Origin: Escherichia coli | GTDB lineage: Bacteria; Pseudomonadota; Gammaproteobacteria; Enterobacterales; Enterobacteriaceae | Direction: 5' to 3' (one strand) | Assembly (NCBI RefSeq): GCF_013122565.1 | Contig: NZ_CP053258.1 | DNA length: 64,000 bases | Shown here: in pieces, positions 2,881-29,600 of the stretch | Numbering within the stretch: the first letter of the stretch is position 1 | How the letters are laid out: every line of letters begins with the position of its first letter | Position numbers and translations under genes: made by a program | Notes under the pieces: model-generated | The model's input: the letters and a program-made list of their open reading frames with translations, nothing else | Told to the model about the DNA's origin: nothing | Database searches by the model: none

Positions 2881-3781
2881 CCGTTCCTCCGTTGGTCACG
2901 CTCCACTGCGTACATGATGCCGCCTGCGTTTTGTTCAGAACCACATCCGCCAGCGGAGAAGCCAGTTCCACACGTTGAACACCTTCAACATGCAGCGCGG
3001 CAAAAATAGCACTACGGCGAATATCCCGACCGAGCCGCGTCTGACTGGCGATGTACCTCTGCAGGCTGACTTTTGCCGCTGCCATTACCGGCTCTGCTTC
3101 CGGTCCCGGATAAAGAAAAATGGTGGCTTCCACACGGTACGGGATGATTTCTGCGCTGCGAACCGTCAGACGGTCAGCCACCGGGCGGACGTTCTCACTG
3201 TTCAGGGCTTTCTCCACCACGTCCAGTAAGTCTTTTTCTGCAGTTCCGTCGCCTTCGCGACTCAGGACAGTCAGCACCACCTCTGCAGGTGCCGGACTGG
3301 TTGCACTGGCATCCGCCACCCGACCGTCGGCGCTTCGGGCATGAAATTCATAAGCTGCAGTTGGCCCCGCAACTGAAAGTCCTTCAAAGGCTGCAGGCAC
3401 ACGCAGGCGTAACGCTTCATCACTTTCCATCACAGCCGCAACAGGCGGTACAGCGTCATCATCAGCAGGTGTCACCGTCAGGCGTTTCACGTTGTAGTTG
3501 GCAGCAATTTGGTCAAGGTCTCCGCCCATCGCGTAAGCCACCATCACCGCCTGCGCGGCTTCGTTAATGCGCTGGCGCAGAAGCAATTCACGGTAAGCGT
3601 TCTCCTGCAACAATTTGGTGACGGGTTCAGATTCAAGCTCCAGCGTACGCATCACTGCTTCCTGCTCATCTTTCGGATGAAGCGCCACAAATTCGGCCTT
3701 GCGTTCGGAAAGCAGCGTCTCAAAGTCCGGCACATCCACAATCTGCGGCGCAGGTAACTGCGAAAGGTCAATCACTGCCAT
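2873..3781 (-). CDS. Baseplate assembly protein (P2 gpJ-like)
   Basis: Start trimmed to MAVIDLSQLPAP... giving 302 aa as in P2 J; synteny. Confidence 0.85.
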   Translation of the reverse strand: MAVIDLSQLPAPQIVDVPDFETLLSERKAEFVALHPKDEQEAVMRTLELESEPVTKLLQENAYRELLLRQRINEAAQAVMVAYAMGGDLDQIAANYNVKRLTVTPADDDAVPPVAAVMESDEALRLRVPAAFEGLSVAGPTAAYEFHARSADGRVADASATSPAPAEVVLTVLSREGDGTAEKDLLDVVEKALNSENVRPVADRLTVRSAEIIPYRVEATIFLYPGPEAEPVMAAAKVSLQRYIASQTRLGRDIRRSAIFAALHVEGVQRVELASPLADVVLNKTQAASCTQWSVTNGGTDE

Positions 3782-4127
3782 TCTCTGCTCCTGTTGATAC
3801 GGAAAGGGAAACAGGCACACCGTTATTCCGCCGCCCGGTCAGCTCCACCACCATTGAACCGTCAAAATTGCTGTTGATGGTGATGGAATCCAGCGTCATC
3901 CTTGGCTCCCAGCGACTCAGCGCCACATACACTGCCGACATGACCTGCAGGTGTAATGCCGGATTTTGTGGCTGGTCTATCAGTGCCGACAGCAGGGAAC
4001 CATATTCCCGACGGGCAATGCGGCTACCCTGCGGCGTCAGCAAAATGTCCCGCACCGACTGGCGCAGATGGTCCGTGTCTGTAATAGTTTTTCCGTTGTT
4101 CTGACTCATGCCGATATACAGCGTCAT
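3768..4127 (-). CDS. Baseplate protein (P2 gpW-like)
   Basis: 119 aa; ...DILLTPQGSRIARREYGSLLSALIDQPQ... resembles gpW; ATGA overlap with V. Confidence 0.8.
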   Translation of the reverse strand: MTLYIGMSQNNGKTITDTDHLRQSVRDILLTPQGSRIARREYGSLLSALIDQPQNPALHLQVMSAVYVALSRWEPRMTLDSITINSNFDGSMVVELTGRRNNGVPVSLSVSTGAENGSD

Positions 4128-4702
4128 ACCGGGCCTCCGGTTGTATCGCCGCCTTTCAGGACGCCAGTATGCTGATGCGCATCAACCACGATCCCGTTAG
4201 AACTCATCGCTCCGCCGCCCTGGGTAACGCCACCATTGATCACAACTTCGCTGTTAATGCGCGTGCGGTCAGCCTCCAGTACAAACTCACTGGTTTTCAG
4301 GGTGATATTGTCAGCGGCCTCAATGACCATGGATTTGATGCCCCTGACATACCAGCGCCCGGTGGCGGGTTCGTATTCAAACCAGCCACCGTCTGGGTAC
4401 TCAACCACGTTGCCGTCCTCAGAGTCTGAAGGTGGTGGAAACTGATTTGAGTAGACAGCAGGCAGGGCAAACGCGGTTTCCAGATTGCCACCCAGGCTGA
4501 ACAGCACAACCTGCTCGCCCACAGACGGTTTCCACCAGGTGCGCGATTTGCCCGCGCGCAGTGTCAGCCAGTTAATCCAGTTGGTTTCGAGGTCGCCCGT
4601 TTTCACCCGACACAGCCAGTTTTCCCGGTCCACTTCGGTGACTACACCTGTGCGAATCAGATTGGTGATAAGGCGCATGATTTCGGTTAGTTGTGCATTC
4701 AT
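4124..4702 (-). CDS. Baseplate spike/assembly protein (P2 gpV-like)
   Basis: 192 aa; MNAQLTEIMRLITNLIRTGVV... aligns with P2 V N-terminus. Confidence 0.85.
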   Translation of the reverse strand: MNAQLTEIMRLITNLIRTGVVTEVDRENWLCRVKTGDLETNWINWLTLRAGKSRTWWKPSVGEQVVLFSLGGNLETAFALPAVYSNQFPPPSDSEDGNVVEYPDGGWFEYEPATGRWYVRGIKSMVIEAADNITLKTSEFVLEADRTRINSEVVINGGVTQGGGAMSSNGIVVDAHQHTGVLKGGDTTGGPV

Positions 4703-4750
4703 GTCGACGATATTTGCACAAACATATATTGTGGGACATTGAGTCAGAAA

Positions 4751-4768
4751 TGTATGACTTACTACACA
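4751..4768. promoter_or_regulatory. TGT-N12-ACA dyad (P2-type late promoter activator element) upstream of V
   Basis: tgtatgacttactacaca; P2 late promoters carry a TGT-N12-ACA dyad bound by Ogr-type activators. Confidence 0.3.
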
Positions 4769-4795
4769 ATGTTTATCCGCGCAAAGGAGTTACAG

Positions 4796-5701
4796 ATGAC
4801 ACAAATCGGTATCTATGGATATTGCTTCACGAAAGAATTTACTTTTAAAGGAGGGACACTGATACCTCGTTACAAATCCTTTAAGGAACTAAAAGAGAAT
4901 AAATGCGATGGAAGCGAATATGTATTAAGTGGATTTTTCTCTCCCGCACATGCTTCTGAAAACACCGTCACTCAAATAATTTATGATCTTTCAGCTGTTT
5001 TAAGTTTCATTGAACAAAAAAATGTAATCATATCAAACTTCCTAGAGGAACATGAAACACCTGAAAAGTTAGATAATAATTTCCCACTAAAATTGAAGTC
5101 AAAAAGAAAGTCATCACTAGGAATAATTGTTGAAGATTACTTCTCTGAAAAGAGTCGCTCAGCGTTCATTGAGCTTGCGATGGATAAACTTCATAGAAAT
5201 ATTAATTCTCATCAAAACCCTTTTAGAACTGCGTTCTATAAGTCTATATTTTCTTTTAGGGAAAGAATGGACTATGTAGATGTTAAATACTTCCTTAATT
5301 TCTCAGCATTAGAATCCCTGTGCAGATATATCGATAACGAGTCGACATCTAGTTATACACCACAAATAATTACAAAGGTTTTAAAAGATTATGGTTTTAA
5401 TGTATCTAAAGAAGGCAACCCTGTACCACAAAGAAACGTGATTCACTATTGCACGCTTCGAAACTCTCTATTCCACAATGGAAATTATATTGGATACATT
5501 AAGAAAGATGATCCAAGCAGTATCATTAAATTAAGTGATTATTATTCAAATCTAAATTTACTTTTACCTTTAGTATTAATGAAATATATAGGATTCGATG
5601 ATGGATTAATTAACTGGGACTCATGGATAGACTATGAACCATTTCTCGCCCTCAGGCCTAAAAACTTAACTCCATCGAATGGTAAACAATCAATTAGATA
5701 G
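4796..5701 (+). CDS. AT-rich cargo gene: hypothetical protein with Rx4H motif (HEPN-like, abortive-infection-like candidate)
   Basis: About 301 aa from MTQIGIYGYCF with AGGAG RBS upstream; low GC relative to flanks; antisense to the S-V tail operon; motif RNSLFH. Confidence 0.7.
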   Translation: MTQIGIYGYCFTKEFTFKGGTLIPRYKSFKELKENKCDGSEYVLSGFFSPAHASENTVTQIIYDLSAVLSFIEQKNVIISNFLEEHETPEKLDNNFPLKLKSKRKSSLGIIVEDYFSEKSRSAFIELAMDKLHRNINSHQNPFRTAFYKSIFSFRERMDYVDVKYFLNFSALESLCRYIDNESTSSYTPQIITKVLKDYGFNVSKEGNPVPQRNVIHYCTLRNSLFHNGNYIGYIKKDDPSSIIKLSDYYSNLNLLLPLVLMKYIGFDDGLINWDSWIDYEPFLALRPKNLTPSNGKQSIR

Positions 5702-10287: not shown

Positions 10288-11121
10288 TCAGCAATTGGTC
10301 AGAGTGTCAGCGGGGGCGTTACCGCCTGTTGCACGCTGGCGGTAGTCCTGGCGGCTGTCTTCATGACTTAGCTTGTCCACCAGTTCGTTAAAGGCGGTCA
10401 GCTGTGCCTGCAGGGCAGTCTCCAGCTCAGACAGGCGTTCTTCCTGCTCAGACAGGGATTTTTCGGTGCGTGCGCTCAGGTTCTGCTGCTCAGTGGCGAC
10501 CAGCTCCACGGCCTTATGCACATCAGAGAACCGGGCGTCATCGGACTGCTCTTTTTTGGTAAACAGCGCCGTGACGCGGGCAAACAGGGACGGTTTGTCG
10601 TCTTGGATTTCTTCCAGTTCGATCACCGTTTCCTCTGCAGCGGTAAAGAGATTGGCAGGATTCTGCTTGCGGTTTGCCAGCGGGTTATGGGCTGCACTGG
10701 CGCTGAATGTCAGCATTTCCGTACCCAGACTGGCAGGGTCATCAGTGGCAGCCAGGCCGACCAGGTAGGCTTTGCCCGTATCAGCGAACTTCGGGCTGAC
10801 TTCCATAGAGGTGAATAATTTCTGGCCTTTTTTCACCAGTTCCACCAGGGACTCCGTTGGCTCAACGTCGGCATACAGCGCCATCTTGCCTGCCAGCGGA
10901 CCTTCCGTGATTTCTTCAGCAAACAGCGCCGTCACCTTGCCGTAGCGGTTAAAGGTGCTGTCCGGCAGATAAGACTTGATGTGCTCAAGGTTAATCAGCG
11001 CGGTATACACCGCCGGGTTGTAGCTGGCTGCCATCTGTTCCAGCCATTCACGCTGGATTTCGCGTCCGTCGGTGGTGGCACCTTCCACCCCGATGCGAAA
11101 ACGCTTTGCTTTCACTGTCAT
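10288..11121 (-). CDS. Capsid scaffolding protein (P2 gpO-like)
   Basis: 277 aa; acidic/coiled-coil C-terminal part; divergent from P. Confidence 0.85.
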   Translation of the reverse strand: MTVKAKRFRIGVEGATTDGREIQREWLEQMAASYNPAVYTALINLEHIKSYLPDSTFNRYGKVTALFAEEITEGPLAGKMALYADVEPTESLVELVKKGQKLFTSMEVSPKFADTGKAYLVGLAATDDPASLGTEMLTFSASAAHNPLANRKQNPANLFTAAEETVIELEEIQDDKPSLFARVTALFTKKEQSDDARFSDVHKAVELVATEQQNLSARTEKSLSEQEERLSELETALQAQLTAFNELVDKLSHEDSRQDYRQRATGGNAPADTLTNC

Positions 11122-11199
11122 GAGCCGTGCTCCGTTAGAAAAAACTTACTGGAGCCTTATGGTTGCGGTGATGGGGGCAGTGAAACAATGCGCGGTATT

Positions 11200-11217
11200 T
11201 GTACCGACAACCACACA
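11200..11217. promoter_or_regulatory. TGT-N12-ACA dyad in the divergent O/P late promoter region
   Basis: tgtaccgacaaccacaca, about 80 bp upstream of the O start codon. Confidence 0.35.
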
Positions 11218-11263
11218 AACCGCAGGCGGGGAAAGCCTTCATTCAAGGCTGTAGGTTTGTGCC

Positions 11264-13030
11264 ATGAACACCACACTGACACCCGCAGATCTCGATCCCC
11301 GTCGGCAGGCCATGCTGCTGTACTTTCAGGGATACCGCGTAGCCCGCATTGCTGAAATGCTGGGCGAGAAAGTTGCAACCGTTCACAGCTGGAAAAAACG
11401 CGACAAGTGGGGTGACTATGGGCCGCTGGATCAGATGCAGCTCACCACCGCCGCACGCTACTGCCAGCTCATCATGAAGGAGCACAAAGAAGGGAAAGAT
11501 TTCAAAGAGATTGACCTGCTGGCGCGCCAGTCTGAGCGCCACGCGCGGATCGGCAAGTTTAACAATGGCGGCAACGAATCCGACTTAAACCCTAACGTCG
11601 CCAACCGCAACAAAGGCCCACGCCGTCAGCCGGAAAAGAATGTTTTCACCGATGAGCAGATTGAGAAGCTGGAAGAAATCTTCCATTCCTCCATGTTCAA
11701 CTACCAGCGCCACTGGTGGGAAGCCGGAAAAACCAACCGCATCCGCAACCTGCTGAAGTCACGCCAGATCGGCGCGACCTTTTACTTTGCCCGTGAAGCC
11801 CTGATTGACGCCCTGCTGACCGGACGTAACCAGATTTTCCTTTCCGCCAGCAAGGCACAGGCCCACGTCTTTAAGCAGTACATCATCGACTTCGCCAAAG
11901 AAGTGGAGGTGGAGTTGAAAGGCGATCCGATGGTGCTTCCTAACGGGGCCACGCTTTACTTCCTCGGCACCAATGCCCGCACGGCCCAGAGTTATCACGG
12001 CAACCTGTATCTGGATGAATATTTCTGGATACCGAAATTCCAGGAGCTGCGCAAAGTGGCTTCCGGTATGGCTATTCACAAGAAATGGCGACAAACCTAT
12101 TTTTCCACGCCATCCAGCCTGACACACAGTGCTTATCCGTTCTGGTCCGGTGCGCTATTCAACCGTGGGCGCAACAAAGCCGATAAGGTGGACATCGACC
12201 TGTCCCACAGCAATCTGGCCCCCGGCCTGCTGTGCGCAGACGGGCAATACCGCCAGATTGTCACCGTGGAAGATGCAGTGCGCGGCGGATGTAACCTGTT
12301 CGACCTCGATCAGTTACGCATGGAGTACAGCCCGGACGAATACCAGAACCTGCTGATGTGCGAGTTTGTGGACGATCTCGCGTCTGTGTTCCCACTCAGC
12401 GAGCTGCAGGCGTGCATGGTGGACAGCTGGGAAGTCTGGACCGACTTTCATGCACTGGCACTGCGCCCATTTGGCTGGCGCGAAGTGTGGATCGGTTATG
12501 ACCCGGCGAAAGGTACGCAGAACGGCGACAGTGCCGGATGCGTGGTGGTGGCACCGCCAGCCGTGCCGGGCGGCAAGTTCCGCATTCTTGAGCGTTACCA
12601 GTGGCGCGGGATGGACTTTCGCGCCCAGGCTGACGCCATCAAAAAACTGACCGAACAGTACAACGTGACCTATATCGGCATCGACTCAACCGGCGTTGGT
12701 CACGGGGTTTATGAGAACGTGAAAGCGTTCTTTCCTGCCGTCCGGGAGTTTGTCTACAACCCCAACGTTAAAAACGCCCTGGTACTCAAGGCCTACGACA
12801 TTATCAGCCACCGCCGTCTGGAGTTTGACGCCGGGCACACCGACATTGCGCAGTCATTCATGGCAATCCGTCGCGCCACCACCGCCAGTGGCAACCGCCC
12901 GACCTATGAAGCCAGCCGCAGCGAAGAAGCCAGCCACGCCGATCTGGCCTGGGCAACGATGCACGCACTGTTTAACGAACCGCTGCAGGGCGAATCCGCC
13001 AATACCAGCAATATTGTGGAGATTTTTTGA
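11264..13030 (+). CDS. Terminase large (ATPase) subunit (P2 gpP-like)
   Basis: 588 aa; divergent from O as in P2. Confidence 0.9.
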   Translation: MNTTLTPADLDPRRQAMLLYFQGYRVARIAEMLGEKVATVHSWKKRDKWGDYGPLDQMQLTTAARYCQLIMKEHKEGKDFKEIDLLARQSERHARIGKFNNGGNESDLNPNVANRNKGPRRQPEKNVFTDEQIEKLEEIFHSSMFNYQRHWWEAGKTNRIRNLLKSRQIGATFYFAREALIDALLTGRNQIFLSASKAQAHVFKQYIIDFAKEVEVELKGDPMVLPNGATLYFLGTNARTAQSYHGNLYLDEYFWIPKFQELRKVASGMAIHKKWRQTYFSTPSSLTHSAYPFWSGALFNRGRNKADKVDIDLSHSNLAPGLLCADGQYRQIVTVEDAVRGGCNLFDLDQLRMEYSPDEYQNLLMCEFVDDLASVFPLSELQACMVDSWEVWTDFHALALRPFGWREVWIGYDPAKGTQNGDSAGCVVVAPPAVPGGKFRILERYQWRGMDFRAQADAIKKLTEQYNVTYIGIDSTGVGHGVYENVKAFFPAVREFVYNPNVKNALVLKAYDIISHRRLEFDAGHTDIAQSFMAIRRATTASGNRPTYEASRSEEASHADLAWATMHALFNEPLQGESANTSNIVEIF

Positions 13031-14064
13031 TGGGAAAGAGTAAGAAGAACCGAGCTGCGGCGACGAAACAGATCCAGCTTAAAAGTCAAACTACAGCCGA
13101 AGCATTCAGCTTCGGCGATCCCGTTCCTGTTCTGGACCGCCGAGAATTACTGGACTATGTGGAATGCGTACAGATGGACCGTTGGTATGAGCCGCCCGTC
13201 AGCTTTGACGGACTGGCGCGCACCTTCCGCGCTGCAGTGCATCACAGTTCCCCGATTGCAGTAAAGTGCAACATTCTGACCAGTACCTACATCCCTCACC
13301 CGCTGCTCAGCCAGCAGGCTTTTTCACGTTTTGTGCAGGACTATCTGGTATTTGGTAACGCCTACCTGGAGAAACGCACGAACCGATTCGGTGAAGTTAT
13401 CGCCCTTGAGCCTGTGCTGGCAAAATACACCCGACGCGGGTTAGACCTGGATACCTACTGGTTTGTGCAATACGGCATGACTACACAGCCGTATCAGTTC
13501 ACGAAAGGCAGCATTTTTCACCTGATGGAACCGGATATCAACCAAGAGATCTACGGCCTGCCCGGTTATCTTTCTGCCATTCCGTCAGCCCTGCTCAACG
13601 AGTCCGCCACGCTGTTCCGCCGCAAGTATTACATTAACGGCAGCCACGCAGGCTTCATCATGTACATGACCGACGCCGCGCAGAACCAGGAGGATGTAAA
13701 CAACCTCCGTAACGCGATGAAAAGCGCCAAAGGACCAGGCAACTTCCGTAACCTGTTTATGTACTCGCCGAACGGCAAAAAGGACGGGCTTCAGATCATC
13801 CCATTGTCTGAAGTCGCGGCAAAGGATGAGTTTCTGAATATCAAAAATGTTAGTCGCGATGACATGATGGCGGCACACCGCGTGCCGCCGCAAATGATGG
13901 GGATTATGCCTAATAATGTTGGGGGGTTTGGGGATGTGGAGAAAGCGAGTATGGTATTTGTGAGGAATGAATTAATTCCTCTACAAAGGCGTTTAGAAGA
14001 GCTTAATTTGTGGCTAGAAGAGGAAGCCATAAAATTCAAACCATACAATTTATCAGATAATTAG
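13027..14064 (+). CDS. Portal protein (P2 gpQ-like)
   Basis: 345 aa; ATGA overlap with P. Confidence 0.9.
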   Translation: MMGKSKKNRAAATKQIQLKSQTTAEAFSFGDPVPVLDRRELLDYVECVQMDRWYEPPVSFDGLARTFRAAVHHSSPIAVKCNILTSTYIPHPLLSQQAFSRFVQDYLVFGNAYLEKRTNRFGEVIALEPVLAKYTRRGLDLDTYWFVQYGMTTQPYQFTKGSIFHLMEPDINQEIYGLPGYLSAIPSALLNESATLFRRKYYINGSHAGFIMYMTDAAQNQEDVNNLRNAMKSAKGPGNFRNLFMYSPNGKKDGLQIIPLSEVAAKDEFLNIKNVSRDDMMAAHRVPPQMMGIMPNNVGGFGDVEKASMVFVRNELIPLQRRLEELNLWLEEEAIKFKPYNLSDN

Positions 14065-14108: not shown

Positions 14109-15869
14109 CTATATGCTGCATATTTTTTTATAATGTTCAAAAACATCTTTAAAAGTGTTGAGTATTATTTCAAAACCACTAAAATCAACTTTTCGTTTTT
14201 TATCCCTAACTACTTTCACAGAGAAAACATGTTTCCCATATTCAGTTTTTGAGTCCCCATCGTTCTTTTTGTTAAATTTTTTACCACCAAGAATAGTTGA
14301 TAATACATCATGAGTAAAAAGATCTTCCATCGCAGTCTGCTCACCAGTAGCACTTAAAGGCGTTAGAATGATATAGAGATTTTTAAAGACATGGATAAAT
14401 CTCATTTTTCTCATTTTATTGGTATCATCGGGGCAGCTCTTAACATTATTTTTAAGGAAATTCAAAATCTCATTAGAACCAGAATCGTTGTCCAATACCA
14501 TGATAACCGGGTGCTTAGGAATGCTTCCATAGTAGCTTGAATATTCATCCATATATCTTTCGATGAATTTTTTAAGATCTGCGCTACCTCCAGACATATT
14601 AATAAAATAACTTGACTTCTCATCAGATTTAAAAATATTCAAGTTGATATCATTTCCTTTACCGTCTGTGCTTTTCTTGAGCAACTCAGGAAATTTGGCA
14701 GAAAGTGAACGAATAGCTGATTTTAAATATACTCGATCAGTTTTGCCTTCTGTCAAGATTGTCGGGGAAGCATGTCCATGAAAAAACTTGTAGTAAATAA
14801 ATTTACTATATGCCTTCTCTCGTACATTCAGCTTTAACCTGTAGTTTTTTAATGTAATATGAATAGGCGCATATTTTTCAGGCTGTTTACTTATTTTATC
14901 TTGTATGTTATTAAATTTATCAATCTGGTCAATAAACCCAAATCTTCCCTCTAGTTTTTCGATACTCCCCACGACTAGCTTACCATCTTCATCAGGTAGC
15001 TTATATTCTCCCTTACTATAAAGTGAATGAGCTAATGCTCTTGTTTTATTCGAATATTTCCTATCAACGTTAACAAATCTATTTATAGTAAGTCCCGTAA
15101 CTTCTTGTCTCGTGGATTTGTACGAGATCCTTGTTTTAGCATCATTAATATCAAAACCAGCACGTTTTATTTCACTGACAAGAATGCTCCCCAAGACAAC
15201 CCCCTCAGGAAGAGATATTGCCAAATCGGTAGGAAATTCTTTTTTATTAGTTGAAAACGTGATGTCATCGGCATAACGACTATATGAACAACCTAAACTC
15301 TTTGCTAATTTAGCTAATCTAATATCCATAATGCTACAAATTAAGTTTGTTATCACTGGAGAACACGGGCTACCCTGAGGCAAACTTCCCTTATAGCATG
15401 CGGCTTTAGCTAAAGTAGTGGCGACAATCGGATTTAATAAGAAATCCCTATTGGATAGGAAGTACCCTCTCACTCGCCCAAAATTAAAGCTTTTGAAAAA
15501 ATCCTTAAGATCAATATTGAGTATTATATTTTTCCCACGATGTCTGAAAGCATTGGAAATTATTGACTTATTTCTTTCAAAACCAAAGGAGTAATTGTTT
15601 TTAATTTTTTTAATTTTGAAAGTTTCATCTCTACACTCCATTAAAAGATCGGCTATTCGTCTTTGGAGATCTTTCAAACTATCTTCTGGCGCAGAAATCA
15701 ATCTGACTCCCTTACCTTTTTTTGGAATAGAGAAATCTTTATACTGATTATCAGTACCAATTCTGTAAAGAATATTCGTTAAAAACACCAACTTAACATC
15801 TAGCAATTTTGCCAAGTCAGCACGAGATGCTGCGACTTTCAAAAGTAGTAATTTAGAAGTTGCGACCAT
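14109..15869 (-). CDS. ret: Retron reverse transcriptase with C-terminal TOPRIM domain (RT-TOPRIM fusion; consistent with retron-Ec67 / Retron-Eco2 RT)
   Basis: 586 aa; RT motifs [23 protein letters not shown] (res 199-202); TOPRIM-like TEGKTD (373-378) and VLDNDSG (458-464); strongly AT-rich. Confidence 0.9.
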
Positions 15870-16469: not shown

Positions 16470-16895
16470 ATGAAAAGCTTTTACGTATTAATTTTAATTC
16501 TGGTTGCAAGCTTTGTTAGCGTCCCAGTTCAGGCGGTAACAGCTAAAAACTATGAGAAAGGAACTAAAGCTCAACAGAAATCAATATCTTACCTTTCATG
16601 TGCATTCTATGGCAGTAGCACACAATTAGATCCTAGCTACACGGAGCAAGTACCTACAGCCGATATCAAGATATTACAGAAAGCAGCTTACCACGCTTAC
16701 AACGATGCGCTCTCATACTTTGGCTATGAGGAACCAGATCACGAACAACGCATAATTGATTATGCTGAATTTGTGGCGTCGCAAGAAGCTGTGTTATGGG
16801 ATAAGCCGGGAATGAATGGAAAGCAGGTAACACTAATTGCTCGTTCTCTCTACAATGAGAGTAACTGTAACTTGTTACTGGACTCAATTAAGTAG
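16470..16895 (+). CDS. AT-rich cargo gene: small secreted protein of unknown function
   Basis: 141 aa; signal peptide MKSFYVLILILVASFVSVPVQA; GAGG RBS; low GC. Confidence 0.7.
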   Translation: MKSFYVLILILVASFVSVPVQAVTAKNYEKGTKAQQKSISYLSCAFYGSSTQLDPSYTEQVPTADIKILQKAAYHAYNDALSYFGYEEPDHEQRIIDYAEFVASQEAVLWDKPGMNGKQVTLIARSLYNESNCNLLLDSIK

Positions 16896-17054
16896 GAAAA
16901 AGATGGTATTTTGCCCGTAGTTTCAACCTTAATCTCCGAACCTGTCGCAGAACGGGCGTTCACTCATCAAATAAACGCCACACCTAACGCCTCACTGTAC
17001 TCGTTGTTCAACCTTGCTGACGCCAGAACCAAGTTCAGACGCCAGCAACTTTTC

Positions 17055-17288
17055 TTAATGCAGCCAGCTGTCGTCTTCCCACACCTTCTGCATAATCTTC
17101 ATCACTTGTTTTCTTTCTTCGTCCAGTTGCAGTCCGGTCAGTTCCACACCGTTAGAGCTACCTTTGCGGATGCGAATTACCGTTTTGGGATACAGGGGGC
17201 GCAGATTGCGGTAAAGCTCGGATTCAAGGGCGTCCAGGGTAGACTGGCTAATCTTCTGCTCTTTATCGATCATTATTTCAATGCGCAT
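17055..17288 (-). CDS. DinI-family protein (Tum antirepressor C-terminal-domain-like)
   Basis: Start trimmed to MRIEIMIDKEQ... (GAGGTG RBS); pattern MRIE...LDALESEL...WEDDSW resembles DinI. Confidence 0.7.
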   Translation of the reverse strand: MRIEIMIDKEQKISQSTLDALESELYRNLRPLYPKTVIRIRKGSSNGVELTGLQLDEERKQVMKIMQKVWEDDSWLH

Positions 17289-17298
17289 AAAGGTCACC

Positions 17299-17487
17299 TC
17301 AGCTGATGACATCCATTGAGCGGTTGTATTCGTGGGTTCTGATTTTTGCCATGAGTTCATCAGTCAATTCAGAAACCCACTGCAGAGCCAGCCCCTTCTC
17401 TTCATCACTACACTCACTAGCCGCTACAAGCTTAAGAAAAAAATCAATGCGCTGGAGCTTCAAAGACTCCAAAAAATAGTCCTGCAT
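17299..17487 (-). CDS. Small protein upstream of DinI-like ORF (possible N-terminal part of a Tum-like antirepressor)
   Basis: 62 aa; directly downstream of a LexA box; separated from the DinI ORF by a frame change. Confidence 0.5.
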   Translation of the reverse strand: MQDYFLESLKLQRIDFFLKLVAASECSDEEKGLALQWVSELTDELMAKIRTHEYNRSMDVIS

Positions 17488-17639: not shown

Positions 17640-20054
17640 TTAATACAGGTTCCGCCACTTATCATCTTCCTGCAAACGCTGGTTCCGATAGAAGATACGC
17701 AGGCCTGCTCCTGACGGAATACTGCCGCCGCGAAGGAGTAAATCGACCTCTTTCTCGCTGCCATCAAATCCTCTGGACTTCAGTTCATAGACGAGCTGCT
17801 GTCGCTGATGGTCTGTAATTCGCTGTTTGTAGTCTTTACGCCGTTTCGGTTTCACCAGGCGTAACCTTGCAGCCAGTTCCCGGCGCTCTTTTTTGCTCAT
17901 ACTGTGCAGGTATTCGTGCAACTCCTTGTCATCCATGCGGGTAATGTCCGTTCTGGTATCCCCATCAGCTGATTTGTCTTTCCCTTGTTGGTTCAAATTT
18001 TCAGCAAGGGGACAGTTATTGCCACGAGTCCAAGGGGCGCAAGCGCCCTGGTCGGCTACCGCCTCCTGAACGTCAACGGCTTTACGAACCATTTTCCACT
18101 TCACTGCATGAGTGCAGATCTTGCCCTCTGCAATGGGTGACCAGATGCCATAAATACGAATGCCGTGATCGCCATAGGCGGTCGGCTCTTCGTTAATTTC
18201 ATAAGCAGTTCTGATGAGGTGATATTTGCGGGGAACCAGTACGCCGCCCTGCTTCATGATGTAAGTGGCAAAACAACCAGCATCAGCAGCAGCCAGGATT
18301 GCATCAAGGCGCGGGTTATCCAGTACCGGCGCACCTGCTTTTTTGTCCCCCTGTTGCCTTGCCGCCTGACCAGCCAACAATCGCAGTTCACGGTAAGCCT
18401 GACGCCCCGGAATGCCAAAGAAGCGGAATTGCTGAACACGATGCAAAGACGCCCAGGCATTCACGTATTCAGCGTTATCACGCAGAGATTTACCCGTTTC
18501 CTTGCTGATCTCGCCAGCCAGACCACGCCCGTCAATGTTCTTACTGATGTATTTCGCGATGTAGCTTGTTGGCGTACCTTTGCGCGGGTTTATCAGCTCA
18601 GACTTAAAGCGTGGTCCCGTGTTATTACCCAGCTCCTCGCGGTCTTCACGAATGGCAAACTTACGCAACAAAGCAGTAATGGCTCGGCGATCTTTTTTGC
18701 GCATAAAACACAACAGGTGCCAGTGCACTGTACCGTCATGATGCGGCTCAGCCACCCGCACGCCATACCAGCGCAATCCGGCTTTGTGCATCGCTTTACG
18801 AAATGCAGCAAACATGCCGACCAGATAATCACTGCTTTGTCTTACCGTCGCGTTTGTCCAGGTCGGGTTTGGTCTGCCGTTATTTAGCGTGGAATGGAAA
18901 CGTGACGGACAGGTGATGGTGTAGAAAACGGCGCAGTCACCGCGCATTTCCGCGATAAGCTCCAGACCTTTAACACAGGCCATCATCTCATTGCGGCGAT
19001 GCGCAGGGTTGCTGCTGCTGGCGTTTACCACGTCTTCCATATCCAGCGTGTCGCCGTCTTCGTTCACCAGTTCATGAGAACGAAAAAACTCCAGCGACTT
19101 ACGGCGCTGCTCACGTTTATGCATCACGGCTTCATAGCTGACATAGGGAGATGCTTTTTTGCTGACCAGGCAGACAGCGCGCAACTGCTCTTCCCGCCAT
19201 TCGCAACGCATCTTCCATAATTTCCGATACCACCAGTCGGCGCACAACATACGCGCCAGCGAACCCGGAATGAGTTCATAGGGCACGGGTTTACGGCGGT
19301 TTCTTTTCCGGCGGAGTTGCTCAAACGCAGGTGGGATGACATCCAGTCGCAGGGTTTCTGCTGCCACCCTTTCCCATGTCTTGCGGATTTCTTCTGGCTT
19401 AACGTCATCGGTGGCATACAAATCGCCACAAGCTGCATCAAGGCACATGCTCATATGCGCAGCTACCAGGGTGGACAGGCGTTTCACCTGATCCTGACTC
19501 ATTTCAGGCAGGATCAGCAGGCCGTCCAGCCCTTCCTGGCTCGCCATAAAGCGAAAAGCAGTGGATAGCTGACTGTCGCGTACATGCTCCAGCCGTTCCA
19601 GACATGGCTTAATCGTCTCACGCAAATAGCGGGAATAAGCCTTTGGCCTGCCCAGGCTGCTGAAGTATTCAATACGTTGCATCAGCGGCTTGCTGATATG
19701 GGAAGGCTGGGCGTTAACGTCCGCCAGAATGACCATGTCTGGATTAAAACGCTGCTGCTCATGCGCCAGCTTTGCCCGGCTAATGAGCTTATCCTGCTCT
19801 ATTTCGCGTTGGACAGGATCACGGGATTCATTAAAGAAATAACGCTCCCAGACCTGATCACTCAGAGCCTCGCGGCGCAGTTGTTCCTGCTCGTTATCGG
19901 CAGCGTACAGAGTGATCAGGTTTGAAAGCGCAGAAACCGGCGCAACTTCCGCCGGGTCCAGATAAGGGTTAATGGCCTTTTTCGGGCTGTTCCATGAGAA
20001 TGCTGCGGCGACCTCGTTAAAGCCGCTGCAGTTGTTCATATCATCATGGCTCAT
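17640..20054 (-). CDS. Replication initiation protein (P2 gpA-like rolling-circle nickase)
   Basis: 804 aa; position downstream of early genes; stop/start overlap with the methylase gene. Confidence 0.9.
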
Positions 20055-20908
20055 GCACGCACTCCGTACATGGCAGAACTATCCACGCCACGCGAAGGAT
20101 CAAATCCCACCCAGCAGCGCGCCCCGGAAACAGCAATGATTTCTGTTGCAGATTTACTCTCGCCAGCCGACACGCCGATGCTGCGTTTTGCCTTGATGTA
20201 GTGGTGAGTGAAATTGCGATACAGCGAACGAATCAGGGATGTGTCACTGTTAGAAACAATGACCGGATGTCCTTCAGATGCTCGATGTTCAAGAACGGAT
20301 GCCAGGTGATACTGGTCATCTTCAGTGAAACCATCAGTGTGATAGCCGGAAAACGTACCGTCATACGGCGGATCGCAATACACCACATCCCCCGCCTTCA
20401 ACATCGCCAGCGTTTCATCAAAGCTGGCGCAGATAAACGTTGCCCGCTGGGCTTTTTCTGCAAATGCGCGAATTTCTTTTTCAGGGAAATACGGATTTTT
20501 ATAATTACCGTAGGGAATGTTGAAATGCCCGCTCTTGTTATAGCGACATAAACCACGGTAACCGTGACGATTGAGATACAGGAAATATACCGCTTTCATG
20601 AAATCAGTAATTTCAGTGGAGTAATTAAACTCCTGCCTTATGTTGTAATAAGCCACCTCCCTGTTTGCGATCTCAAATAAAACTCTGGCGCGAGATATAA
20701 ACGATTCACAATCAGCGGCAACCTTTTTATAGAGGTTGATTAAATCAAGATTAATATCCGCAACCAGATAGCTTGGATAATCCGTCTCCATCATCACAGC
20801 ACAGGAACCCGCGAAAGGTTCAACCAGTCGCGGGCCAGCAGGAAGGTGTTTTTTCAGTTCGGACATAATTGCGGTTTTATTTCCCGCCCATTTCAGGATG
20901 GTGCTCAT
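20051..20908 (-). CDS. DNA adenine methyltransferase (Dam family, orphan)
   Basis: Start trimmed to [11 protein letters not shown]; motif I-like FAGSCAV and motif IV DPPY (VYCDPPYDG). Confidence 0.85.
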
Positions 20909-21132
20909 ACAGCACCTCCGTTGTAATGTTTGCCTTTCAGCTCTGCGATTTCCTGACAGGTAATGCAAAGCTGCACTCCCGGAATGGCGCGGCGTCGTGC
21001 TGGCGGAATTGGCGCTTCACATTCAATGCAAAGTACGCGTGACACGCCCGGTGATTTGGCACGGGCTGCACGGATATGGCGCTGGCGTTCTTCTTCAACG
21101 CGCTGCTGTACGAGATCCATTGCATCAGCCAT
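20905..21132 (-). CDS. DksA/TraR-family C4 zinc-finger protein
   Basis: 75 aa; CIECEAPIPPARRRAIPGVQLCITCQ (CxxC-N17-CxxC). Confidence 0.75.
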   Translation of the reverse strand: MADAMDLVQQRVEEERQRHIRAARAKSPGVSRVLCIECEAPIPPARRRAIPGVQLCITCQEIAELKGKHYNGGAV

Positions 21133-23054: not shown

Positions 23055-23651
23055 ATGTCAACATCAAAGTACCCAAGTGAGATCAAAATAAATCCCAATA
23101 AAGGTGGTAAGGCTGCGATTGAGCGATTAGTCGAAGCCTATGGCTTTACGACACGACAGGCTTTAGCTGATCACTTGGAAGTATCAAAAAGCACACTAGC
23201 GAACAGGTATTTGCGGGATACATTTCCTGCTGACTGGATAATCCAATGTGCTCTTGAAACAGGAACCTCCCTCAAATGGTTAACTACCGGACAAGGCCTT
23301 AAGCAAAGCTCGCTGACAGCAGCTACAGAAGAGCTTGTTAAGTTTCGCCTTGCCGCAGGCAAAATGATTGAAGACGGTTCATATGTCTTCGATTCATCAT
23401 TTCTTCCTGCAAACCTTTCATCACCAATTGTTATTCAGGATGGACTCGTCACATACATTTGTGATCAAAAATTTTCTGAAGTACTTGATGGAAACTGGTT
23501 AATCAATATCGACGGAACCTATTCCATTCGAAAAATCACAAGGCTTCCTAAAGGAATGATTAAAATTACAACAGCAGAGAATAGCTTTGAATGTGCATTT
23601 TCTGATATTGAAGTGGTTGCTTGTATAAGAAGTACAATAGTCTCGAATTAA
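23055..23651 (+). CDS. cI: CI-like immunity repressor (186 CI type)
   Basis: 198 aa; position between switch region and int; N-terminal HTH-like segment. Confidence 0.7.
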   Translation: MSTSKYPSEIKINPNKGGKAAIERLVEAYGFTTRQALADHLEVSKSTLANRYLRDTFPADWIIQCALETGTSLKWLTTGQGLKQSSLTAATEELVKFRLAAGKMIEDGSYVFDSSFLPANLSSPIVIQDGLVTYICDQKFSEVLDGNWLINIDGTYSIRKITRLPKGMIKITTAENSFECAFSDIEVVACIRSTIVSN

Positions 23652-23671: not shown

Positions 23672-25348
23672 ATGAATTCATTTGCCATCGTTATACTCTT
23701 ATTAGCATTTCTCGCCCCTGTTCTAGCTGTAATATTATTTAAACAAAGTAAAAAACACAAAGCGGCTATAGATAACCTGACAGCTAACAACATAGCCCTT
23801 TCTAACCAACTGATTGAAAATCAAGAAAAACTAGCACAGACCGTACGAGAATTATCAGATCTTGAAGGGCGAGCAGCACCATTGTGGCAATACGAAGAAT
23901 TGCACAGCGCAGTAATGGATGCAGAGAATAAGATAAAAAATGCGGACTCAATAGCCAAGCAAAAAATAGATGAAGCCCAAATTAAGGCGGCTAAAACAGT
24001 AAACGAAGCAAATTATCAAGCTCAGATAACAATAAGCAACGCTAATAGCGAAGCTATAGCAATCACCAAAGACGCTCGCGATGCACGCCTGAAAGCCAAA
24101 GAACGTCTTGATAATGCTAATAATAAAGCAAATGAGCTAATCTCAAATGCTAATGACAATGCAGTAAAAATTATTTCTGATGCAGAAGAAAGAGCAAAGG
24201 AGATTGCTGGTTCAGCATATGAAGCTAAAGAGTTTGCAGAAAAATATGAAGCAGTTGCAAAATCAATGAAAAATAAAATTGAAGGTTATGGTGATGAATG
24301 GATCATCCCTAACCGTAGTGTACTTGATGAGCTGGCAGAAAATTATGAATTTACAGATGCAGGCAAGGAATTACAAAAAGCCAGAGAGTTAACCAAATCA
24401 TTAATAAAAACTAATAAAGCTGCTTCGTGTGATTATGTTGAGCAAAACAGGCGTAATACTGCCATAAACTTTGTTTTGGATGCCTTCAATGGAAGAGTTG
24501 ACAGTATTTTATCAAAAGTCAAACACAACAATTTTGGAAAACTTTCCCAAGAAATAAAAGATGCATTTCAACTAGTAAATTACAATGGCTCTGCCTTTAG
24601 GTCCGCAAAAATAAGTGACATCTATCTTCAGGCAAGACTCAACGAGCTAAAATGGGGTGTAGCAGTTAATGAAATTATGCTCGAAGAAAAAGAAGAGCAA
24701 AGAAGGATTAAAGAACAGCTTCGTGAAGAGGAAAGAGCTCGTAGAGAATATGAAAAAGCGATAAAAGAAGCTGAAAAAGAAGAAAAAGCTATTCAGCAAG
24801 CTATAAATAAAGCAACGAAAGAACTTATGCTTGCAAATGAAGAACAACGCTTAGCTTTAGAGCAAAAAATAGCTGAACTACAGTTAAAATATGAAGAAGC
24901 TGAAGCTAAAAATCAACGAGCTATTTCTATGGCTCAACAAACCAGATCAGGCCACGTCTATATCATTAGTAATATTGGTTCATTTGGCGAAGATGTATAT
25001 AAAATTGGAATGACACGCCGCCTTGAACCACTTGATCGTGTTCGTGAACTCGGAGATGCTAGTGTTCCTTTTTCGTTCGATGTTCATGCGATGATTTATA
25101 GTGATGATGCACCATCATTAGAAAACCATCTGCATAAAGTTTTCAACGAAAAGCAGGTCAATAAAATTAACTCACGAAAAGAGTTTTTTAACGTAAATTT
25201 AAAAGAAATCAAATCAGTTATTGAAGACATGAACATCAACGCCCACTGGACAATGTTTGCAGAGGCGAAAGAATATAGAGAGTCTCTAGCTATTGAGCAG
25301 GAGCGCAAAGCAGCCACTTCCGCCAACGATGAACTACATGTTGCTTAG
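23672..25348 (+). CDS. AT-rich cargo gene: membrane-anchored coiled-coil protein with C-terminal T5orf172 (GIY-YIG-like) domain; DUF4041-type architecture; defense candidate
   Basis: 558 aa; N-terminal TM helix, long K/E/A-rich coiled coils, C-terminal GHVYIISNIGSFGEDVYKIGMTRRLEPLDRVRELGDASVPFSFDV; co-directional with cI and int. Confidence 0.85.
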   Translation: MNSFAIVILLLAFLAPVLAVILFKQSKKHKAAIDNLTANNIALSNQLIENQEKLAQTVRELSDLEGRAAPLWQYEELHSAVMDAENKIKNADSIAKQKIDEAQIKAAKTVNEANYQAQITISNANSEAIAITKDARDARLKAKERLDNANNKANELISNANDNAVKIISDAEERAKEIAGSAYEAKEFAEKYEAVAKSMKNKIEGYGDEWIIPNRSVLDELAENYEFTDAGKELQKARELTKSLIKTNKAASCDYVEQNRRNTAINFVLDAFNGRVDSILSKVKHNNFGKLSQEIKDAFQLVNYNGSAFRSAKISDIYLQARLNELKWGVAVNEIMLEEKEEQRRIKEQLREEERARREYEKAIKEAEKEEKAIQQAINKATKELMLANEEQRLALEQKIAELQLKYEEAEAKNQRAISMAQQTRSGHVYIISNIGSFGEDVYKIGMTRRLEPLDRVRELGDASVPFSFDVHAMIYSDDAPSLENHLHKVFNEKQVNKINSRKEFFNVNLKEIKSVIEDMNINAHWTMFAEAKEYRESLAIEQERKAATSANDELHVA

Positions 25349-25430: not shown

Positions 25431-26486
25431 ATGGCAGTACGAAAACTAACCACAGGGAAATGGCTTTGCGAATGTTACCCCGCCGGACGTAGCGGACGCC
25501 GTGTGCGTAAACAATTCGCCACCAAAGGCGAAGCACTGGCCTTCGAGCGATACACCATGGGGGAAATAGAAGCAAAGCCCTGGCTGGGCGAATCAGTGGA
25601 TCGTCGGACACTGAAAGATATGGTTGAGCTATGGTTCAAATTACATGGCAAATCTCTTACTGCCGGACAGCATGTCTACAACAAGCTGCTGTTGATGGTT
25701 GACGCCTTGGGAAATCCCCTTGCAACTGATCTCACCTCAAAAATGTTTGCTCACTATCGCGATAAACGCCTTACTGGTGAAATCTACTTCAGTGAAAAAT
25801 GGAAGAAAGGAGCAAGCCCAGTTACTGTTAACCTGGAGCAAAGCCATCTAAGCAGCGTTTTCAGAGAACTTTCCCGCCTGGGTGAATGGACACTTCCAAA
25901 CCCATTAGAGAAGATGCGCAAATTCACTATCGCAGAAAAGGAAATGGCATGGCTTACACATGAGCAGATTATCGAATTACTGTCTGACTGCAAACGTCAG
26001 AACCCAATTCTGGCACTGGTGGTAAAAATATGTCTAAGTACAGGCGCACGTTGGCGAGAAGCAATCAATCTTACCCGCTCACAGGTCACCAAGTACCGAA
26101 TCACCTTTGTGAGAACGAAGGGGAAGAAAAACAGAAGCATCCCTATCAGTAAAGAGCTTTATGAAGAGATCATGGCGCTCGATGGGTTCAATTTCTTCAC
26201 AGACTGCTATTTTCAATTTTTATCCGTGATGGAAAAAACGTCTATCGTTCTCCCTCGCGGTCAACTGACACACGTTCTGCGCCATACGTTTGCGGCGCAC
26301 TTCATGATGTCGGGTGGAAACATCTTGGCCTTACAAAAAATTCTCGGACACCACGATATAAAAATGACTATGCGTTATGCGCATCTGGCACCGGATCATT
26401 TGGAAACGGCGCTCCGTTTCAATCCACTGGCAACGTTACCAAATGGCGACAAAGTGGCGGCAGCGGTTGGCATTACCCCGCAATAA
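25431..26486 (+). CDS. int: Tyrosine site-specific integrase (P2/186-like)
   Basis: 351 aa; C-terminal catalytic region ...LRHTFAAHFMMSGGNILALQKILGHHDIKMTMRYAHL (R, H-x-x-R, Y). Confidence 0.9.
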   Translation: MAVRKLTTGKWLCECYPAGRSGRRVRKQFATKGEALAFERYTMGEIEAKPWLGESVDRRTLKDMVELWFKLHGKSLTAGQHVYNKLLLMVDALGNPLATDLTSKMFAHYRDKRLTGEIYFSEKWKKGASPVTVNLEQSHLSSVFRELSRLGEWTLPNPLEKMRKFTIAEKEMAWLTHEQIIELLSDCKRQNPILALVVKICLSTGARWREAINLTRSQVTKYRITFVRTKGKKNRSIPISKELYEEIMALDGFNFFTDCYFQFLSVMEKTSIVLPRGQLTHVLRHTFAAHFMMSGGNILALQKILGHHDIKMTMRYAHLAPDHLETALRFNPLATLPNGDKVAAAVGITPQ

Positions 26487-28416: not shown

Positions 28417-29231
28417 TGAGCATTAAATTAATTGCGGTAGACATGGATGGTACTTTCTTAAGCGATCAAAAAACCTATAACCGTGAGCGGTTTATGGCTC
28501 AGTATCAGCAAATGAAAGCACAAGGCATTCGCTTTGTGGTCGCCAGCGGGAATCAATATTATCAGTTGATCTCTTTCTTCCCTGAAATTGCTAATGAAAT
28601 TGCCTTTGTGGCTGAAAACGGCGGCTGGGTAGTGAGCGAAGGCAAAGATGTTTTTAATGGCGAGCTGTCGAAGGATGCGTTTGCTACTGTCGTGGAACAT
28701 TTGCTGACGCGCCCGGAAGTGGAAATTATTGCCTGCGGAAAAAATAGCGCCTATACACTCAAAAAATATGACGATGCCATGAAAACGGTGGCGGAAATGT
28801 ATTATCACCGTCTGGAATACGTCGATAACTTTGACAACTTAGAAGATATCTTCTTTAAGTTTGGCCTGAATCTTTCCGATGAACTGATTCCACAAATACA
28901 AAAAGCATTACATGAGGCCATCGGCGATATTATGGTGCCGGTCCACACCGGCAACGGCAGCATCGATCTGATTATCCCCGGCGTACATAAAGCCAATGGC
29001 CTTCGCCAACTGCAGAAATTATGGGGAATAGACGACAGCGAAGTAGTGGTCTTTGGCGATGGCGGTAACGATATTGAGATGCTGCGTCAGGCAGGCTTTA
29101 GTTTTGCTATGGAAAATGCCGGCAGCGCGGTCGTCGCAGCTGCAAAATACCGGGCAGGCTCCAATAACCGTGAAGGCGTACTGGATGTGATCGATAAAGT
29201 GCTTAAACACGAAGCGCCATTTAACCAATAA
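28416..29231 (+). CDS. ybjI: HAD-family (Cof-like) phosphatase YbjI
   Basis: [15 protein letters not shown]... (DxDGT motif); ATGA overlap with ybjJ. Confidence 0.9.
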   Translation: MSIKLIAVDMDGTFLSDQKTYNRERFMAQYQQMKAQGIRFVVASGNQYYQLISFFPEIANEIAFVAENGGWVVSEGKDVFNGELSKDAFATVVEHLLTRPEVEIIACGKNSAYTLKKYDDAMKTVAEMYYHRLEYVDNFDNLEDIFFKFGLNLSDELIPQIQKALHEAIGDIMVPVHTGNGSIDLIIPGVHKANGLRQLQKLWGIDDSEVVVFGDGGNDIEMLRQAGFSFAMENAGSAVVAAAKYRAGSNNREGVLDVIDKVLKHEAPFNQ

Positions 29232-29315
29232 AACGGCAGCACGCCCGGCAACACAATACCAGAATGAAGGTTGCATAATTCGCGGAAATTAACCCGCTGC
29301 ATTATTTCAGGCGAA

Positions 29316-29600
29316 ATGTTTATGAAAAATTGTCTACTGTTGGGCGCGCTTTTAATGGGCTTTACTGGTGTGGCGATGGCGCAAAGTGTCACCGTCGATG
29401 TGCCGAGTGGATACAAAGTGGTTGTGGTTCCTGATTCAGTCAGCGTTCCACAAGCGGTCAGCGTCGCGACTGTGCCGCAAACCGTCTATGTGGCTCCTGC
29501 GCCAGCTCCGGCTTACCGCCCGCATCCTTATGTTCGCCATCTTGCCAGCGTAGGTGAAGGGATGGTTATCGAACACCAGATTGACGACCATCACCATTAA
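29316..29600 (+). CDS. ybjH: Small secreted protein YbjH
   Basis: MFMKNCLLLGALLMGFTGVAMA signal peptide; 94 aa. Confidence 0.8.
   Translation: MFMKNCLLLGALLMGFTGVAMAQSVTVDVPSGYKVVVVPDSVSVPQAVSVATVPQTVYVAPAPAPAYRPHPYVRHLASVGEGMVIEHQIDDHHH

Follow-up and report, generated by a model that had tools for sequence, protein, structure and literature searches.

The window, by which we mean the whole 64,000-nucleotide stretch of Escherichia coli DNA analyzed here, contains part of a P2-family prophage. About 26 kb around the site discussed below belong to this Fels-2-like element, which lies in the E. coli chromosome, integrated beside rcdA; identity of the host genes to E. coli is 99.3%. Its head and tail genes match those of Fels-2, Escherichia phage 500465-1, and many Klebsiella prophages at 96 to 99%, the early region, which includes CI, CII, Fil, and DinI-like genes, is of the 186 type, and the closest prophage among complete E. 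coli genomes is 96.8% identical. The window start falls inside the invertible tail-fibre segment of the prophage. Head genes O and P diverge from a 142-bp gap, and within this gap, at 11200-11217, lies the TGTACCGACAACCACACA dyad. Read directly, the window has tgtaccgacaaccacaca at these positions, a perfect TGT-N12-ACA, so that the sequence and coordinates given in an earlier note on this DNA are exact. The gap and its flanking genes comprise the following features.

10288..11121, minus strand: gene O, capsid scaffold/protease (Pfam Phage_GPO, E = 8e-113), first gene of the P_O late operon
11130..11133, minus strand: GGAG, the Shine-Dalgarno sequence of gene O, 8 nt before the ATG, in columns that are invariant or nearly so in relatives
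11200..11217, no strand: TGT-N12-ACA dyad, with a conserved core TTGT-N12-ACAAA at 11199-11219; predicted Ogr/B-type activator site common to P_O and P_P
11264..13030, plus strand: gene P, large terminase (Terminase_5 from residue 11, then Terminase_6N and Terminase_6C), first gene of the P_P operon
13027-14064: gene Q, downstream of P in the P_P operon

These Pfam assignments of O and P agree with the earlier description of the region as a divergent O/P promoter region. Going upstream from the O start codon, whose A is at 11121 on the minus strand, the near edge of the dyad is reached after 79 nt and the centre after 87.5 nt; the former is the distance that had been put at about 80 bp. On the other side, the centre is 55.5 nt from the P ATG. 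Apart from this ATG, at 11264, P has no in-frame start ahead of residue 11, and a TAG interrupts the frame at 11252.

Several genes of the surrounding prophage are worth recording in their own right. The old/tin cargo slot adjoining Q is occupied by a 586-aa reverse transcriptase (14109-15869, minus strand), which is recognised by models for retron type I-C RT-Toprim (PADLOC E = 6e-213; Pfam RVT_1) and is annotated as retron Ec67 family in relatives; Rfam at gathering thresholds returned no msr/msd RNA for it, and an Rfam scan of 1-27000 gave no matches. Between this retron reverse transcriptase and replication gene A (17640-20054) are open reading frames of 141 and 131 aa (16470-16895 and 16911-17306, plus strand), both without a Pfam or PADLOC match. 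Gene A is followed directly by a gene for a D12-class N6-adenine DNA methyltransferase (20051-20968, minus strand; Pfam MethyltransfD12, E = 2e-75), an arrangement shared with Fels-2 and retron-Ec67-type prophages. Finally, an insertion that separates the CI repressor (23055-23651) from the integrase (25431-26486) encodes a 558-aa DUF4041 and T5orf172/MUG113 protein (23672-25348, plus strand), which matches the defence candidate PD-Lambda-1 (PADLOC E = 3e-120).

To follow the dyad among relatives, we collected 79 loci encoding a P protein 94 to 100% identical to that of the window, which yielded 49 distinct versions of the gap, the window's own included. TTGT (11199-11202) and ACAAA (11215-11219) are unchanged in all 49. 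The earlier note had made conservation in relatives one of the points on which its reading would turn, and the half-sites prove invariant; indeed, the conserved core among these sequences is TTGT-N12-ACAAA rather than the TGT-N12-ACA first called. As the relatives are close, the invariance of six columns taken alone says little, and it is the contrast with the spacer that carries the argument. Variable positions number 0 of 6 in the half-sites and 11 of 12 in the spacer (Fisher p = 3.8e-4 over the 49 distinct sequences). The spacer, 11203-11214, is the most variable stretch of the O/P gap, exceeding the rest of the gap (p = 0.0018), and phages that are otherwise close relatives by their P proteins carry many different spacers: the 49 gap versions contain 16 different dyads, every one of them TTGT-N12-ACAAA. 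Fixed arms around a free spacer form, at the level of sequence, the pattern that is expected of a two-part protein-binding site.

TGT-N12-ACA specifies only six bases, and the dyad might be a functionless chance match of this pattern. The motif is not enriched window-wide, with 14 matches in 64 kb compared to 15.3 +/- 4.1 in shuffled sequences, and a neighbouring match at 11258-11275, which spans the P start codon and in which TGT becomes TGG in 14 of 49 relatives, is evidently best read as chance. Without enrichment the motif count is unusable as evidence, and the case has to be made by placement and conservation. With respect to placement, two of the 14 matches fall at both of the late-promoter positions expected in the window, O/P (11200-11217) and V (4751-4768), and for each promoter the probability that a perfect match falls no more than 2 nt to either side of a set position is ~1e-3 (from 2.2e-4 matches per position). 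Measured from the -10 elements, the dyad is also placed as in P2 and 186, agreeing with their annotated sites to within a nucleotide, and it has siblings at P_V and P_F. These points, and half-sites that stay the same across 16 dyad versions while nearly the whole spacer changes, make a chance match extremely improbable.

The sibling in the window is a second perfect dyad, upstream of gene V.

4751..4768, no strand: second perfect TGT-N12-ACA, TGTATGACTTACTACACA, centred 57.5 nt upstream of the V start codon (4702, minus strand); predicted P_V activator site

In relatives, perfect dyads lie 55.5 nt upstream of V, and this is also where P2 has its annotated P_V site. Perfect TTGT-N12-ACA(A) dyads precede both V and FI in 500465-1, E. 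coli LR-21-1, and Fels-2; P_F of the window's prophage falls outside the window. A -10-like AAATAT at 4715-4710 ends 7 nt before the V ATG, so that the V transcript of the window probably has no leader. In the P2 record, likewise, the transcription start of gene V coincides with the start of its coding sequence, and V in the window has the same layout.

The gap between S and V, which is the P2 orf30 slot, holds an open reading frame of its own at 4691-5701 (plus strand). The product would be about 300 aa from the likely start, ATG 4796, which follows a GGAG at 4786-4789. It is without a Pfam or PADLOC match, and in LR-21-1 the slot encodes an AAA ATPase and a DUF4435 protein. The frame diverges from V, and a 92-bp upstream region containing the P_V dyad is common to the two.

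Comparison of the O/P gap with more distant phages is complicated by divergence, as the gaps of P2 and 186 cannot be aligned with that of the window at the nucleotide level (the P proteins are ~57% identical). We therefore compared geometry instead, in eight P2-family phages: the window's prophage, Fels-2, P2, 186, PSP3, two Klebsiella phages, and one Yersinia phage. TG(T/G)-N12-ACA is present at the conserved position of the P/O gap in all eight. On the P side, the distance from the dyad centre to a TAnnnT is 43.5 nt in seven phages and 44.5 nt in the remaining one, and on the O side, the distance to an xAnnnT is 43.5 or 44.5 nt in all eight. The same geometry places the following elements in the window.

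11252..11257, plus strand: predicted P_P -10 hexamer TAGGTT, TAnnnT in all relatives, first base 43.5 nt from the dyad centre
11159..11164, minus strand: predicted P_O -10 hexamer AACCAT, first base 44.5 nt from the dyad centre, A2 and T6 kept in relatives
near 11152 +/- 3, minus strand: predicted P_O transcription start, extrapolated, giving a leader of ~30 nt
11264..11264, plus strand: predicted P_P transcription start, the A of the P start codon, placed purely by P2 spacing

The P_P hexamer occurs in relatives as TAGGTT, TATGTT, TAGGCT, TAACCT, and TAATCT, with T1, A2, and T6 kept in all. The P_O hexamer is AAACAT in Fels-2 and GAAACT in P2, 186, and PSP3, where it lies 43.5 nt from the dyad centre. 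A scan of 10900-11500 found no sigma-70-type promoter, which is a weak test given that shuffles average only 0.3, and such an absence is as expected for activator-dependent promoters.

The sites annotated in P2 and 186 are in the same place as the dyad of the window, and the match to the dyad of P2 Ogr and 186 B, suggested in the earlier note, is upheld by this correspondence. The P2 record (NC_001895) has one "activator binding site; pO, pP promoters" at 3057-3087, with transcription starts at 3016 (P) and 3127 (O), each 55.5 nt from the centre of a TGG-N12-ACA. In the 186 record (NC_001317), the first base of TGGACAACCGCCCACACA is also that of a protein_bind feature at 3798-3817, "B protein; activation of pV and p12." Like the window's prophage, P2 has a single dyad in the gap from which O and P diverge, and there its centre is 43.5 nt from both -10 elements. 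The P2 set of sites also includes P_V and P_F, and the P2 activator gene follows D at the prophage end, the position predicted for that of the window's prophage. The two differ in that the P2 site is an imperfect TGG-N12-ACA, whereas the window site is perfect and extended to TTGT...ACAAA; in the gap, which is 173 bp in P2 and 142 bp in the window, with flanks that cannot be aligned; and in the P leader, 23 nt in P2 and predicted to be absent in the window phage. Phage 186 shares the architecture, including a distance of 87.5 nt from the dyad centre to the ATG of the scaffold gene in both and an early region of the same type, but differs in having a TGG-N12-ACA site, a leader on its P homologue, and head genes of another clade.

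Published accounts give TGT-N12-ACA as the consensus, describe P2 late promoters as dependent on Ogr and the zinc finger as CX2CX22CX4C, and report a late-promoter motif TGTTGT-N13-ACAACA in Ralstonia phages phiRSY1 and phiRSA1 and a TGT-N12-ACA-like motif in Stenotrophomonas phage Smp131 (PMC3931495, PMC5694545). The Ralstonia and Smp131 sites resemble ours in being predicted Ogr-type sites 5' of the same four late operons, and in Smp131 PP' and PO' have one common site. The Ralstonia motif has half-sites of another length and another spacing, and all of these sites are predictions, as is that of the window. The dyad is almost certainly an unannotated instance, in the Fels-2-like clade, of the long-known Ogr/B activator-site class.

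Assignment to some other factor, such as host CRP, or to a structural element, such as a small hairpin or terminator over the left half-site, was also considered. CRP sites too begin with TGT and end with ACA, but the CRP core, TGTGA-N6-TCACA, corresponds to TGT-N10-ACA, and both its spacing and its inner bases differ from those of the dyad. The structural possibility stems from a scan that returned a 5-bp stem at 11193-11206 (minus strand) followed by a T-poor tail. Terminator-like matches numbered 2 versus 0.8 expected, which is not significant, and the stem lies upstream of both predicted starts and so would not be transcribed. We view either alternative as very improbable. The TGT-N12-ACA string is also the consensus operator of PpsR/CrtJ, which we rejected as binder: these proteins belong to purple photosynthetic bacteria, protein family, organisms, and function are unrelated, and the identity of the strings is coincidental.

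Whether an Ogr-type site here would serve both operons is a more demanding question. The dyad might activate P_O only, with P-Q expressed from another, unrecognised promoter or activator site and provided with a normal leader. What speaks for this is the crowding on the P side, where the dyad centre is just 55.5 nt from the P ATG, compared to 78.5 nt in P2, 186, and PSP3, such that a conventional leader has no room; moreover, leaderless translation is inefficient in E. coli. Yet the gap offers little else for a separate P promoter to use. No second TGT-N12-ACA-like dyad was found in the O/P gap, even with one mismatch allowed, except a 2-nt-shifted overlap of the same site, and the stretch that would need to hold an alternative -10, 11236-11243, is among the most variable of the gap. 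The TAnnnT at 11252-11257 is conserved and has the exact P2 spacing, and the P side contains no further conserved -10. P2 and 186, furthermore, use one site for both promoters. Activation of P_O alone consequently appears unlikely to us, and the single dyad most likely serves both divergent promoters, a role that goes beyond P_O alone.

If the dyad does serve P_P, the arrangement has an unusual consequence for the P-Q transcript. P2 transcribes P from 3016, at 55.5 nt from the dyad centre and 6 nt after the -10, and the same arithmetic in the window leads to 11264. The distance from the -10 to the ATG of the P homologue is 29 nt in P2, 186, and PSP3 versus 6 nt in the window, and with so short a distance the predicted 5' end of the P-Q transcript is the A of the ATG or a position 1 to 2 bases from it. 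Among relatives there is no conserved Shine-Dalgarno sequence upstream of the P ATG, whereas the TAnnnT is conserved. The commonest -10 variant, TAGGTT, contains an AGG 8 nt before the P ATG that could be a weak ribosome-binding site if a longer transcript existed. Fels-2 has the same 6-nt gap between -10 and P ATG, as does Yersinia phage 06.16-2, where the -10 reads TAGCCT just as in P2, and Klebsiella phage phi16.1 has it as well if an in-frame ATG 9 nt upstream of the annotated start is used. P2 gene V, with its annotated transcription start on the first base of the coding sequence, offers a further parallel. A literature search for leaderless late mRNAs in the P2 family returned nothing relevant. 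We see a leaderless P-Q mRNA as an evenly balanced proposition. The evolutionary counterpart would be two independent losses of the P 5' leader, one in the clade with Fels-2-like head genes and one in a P2-like phage of Yersinia, with the transcript starting on the A of the ATG; this could with equal probability be right or wrong.

The phi16.1 locus itself (Klebsiella phage ST258-KPC3phi16.1, L085, positions 695-706) has the annotated terminase start at 704 and the in-frame ATG 9 nt upstream. Judging from this sequence, the deposited start is probably three codons too short.

An operator of this class calls for an activator, and the earlier note had stated that no Ogr/B homolog is visible in the window and that the activator probably lies beyond the window start. 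A tblastn search with P2 Ogr and 500465-1 Ogr revealed no Ogr homologue in the window (best E = 0.11), and synteny lends good support to the second statement. In four relatives, namely 500465-1, LR-21-1, Fels-2, and an IMG/VR locus (L091), a 72-aa Ogr/Delta zinc-finger protein is encoded directly after gene D at the prophage end. In these relatives the ogr homologue is ~8.5 kb past gene G, which corresponds to a position beyond the window start.

Phage 500465-1, 29211-29429: ogr homologue (Pfam Ogr_Delta PF04606, E = 9e-21)
E. coli LR-21-1: ogr homologue, annotated "ogr/Delta-like zinc finger family protein"
Fels-2, 139-357: ogr homologue

The Ogr proteins of the relatives are 50 to 54% identical to P2 Ogr and keep the four cysteines, as CX2CX22CX4C, and one ogr-bearing relative is 96.8% identical over the shared prophage. 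The tail-fibre assembly protein was also tried as a route to the unseen part of the prophage; its gene is mosaic, and few of 80 loci were of the same phage type, with 12 having an ogr homologue. That the activator of the window's prophage would be a 72-aa protein of the Ogr/B/Delta family encoded beyond the window start is well supported by this sequence comparison.

Considering conservation, placement, and geometry together, we conclude that the dyad is very probably the operator for the prophage's Ogr/B/Delta-family late activator, one site for the divergent P_O and P_P. We infer activator binding, the start sites, and the leaderless mRNA, extrapolating the start sites from P2 and 186. Under the proposed mechanism, the activator would be made after induction and would bind the half-sites TTGT and ACAA, 12 bp apart. 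The site would be centred ~55 bp upstream of each of two divergent promoters that lack a -35, and host RNA polymerase would be recruited to both; P2 Ogr contacts the RNA polymerase alpha subunit. Leftward, P_O would transcribe O-N-M-L together with lysis and tail-completion genes, and rightward, P_P would transcribe P-Q.

The late-transcription switch of a very common prophage type, the Fels-2-like prophages of E. coli, Klebsiella, and Salmonella, can in this way be placed on the sequence, which matters little beyond annotation, and reporter assays or induction experiments gain exact targets. Such a site is also where P4-type satellites would be expected to take control of the late genes. Only the predicted leaderless terminase transcript is mildly new. 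If the prediction is true, a leaderless packaging mRNA could hold down the production of terminase and portal in comparison with the divergent capsid operon expressed from the same site, and the predicted transcript may therefore bear on how one activator site drives two operons at different outputs.
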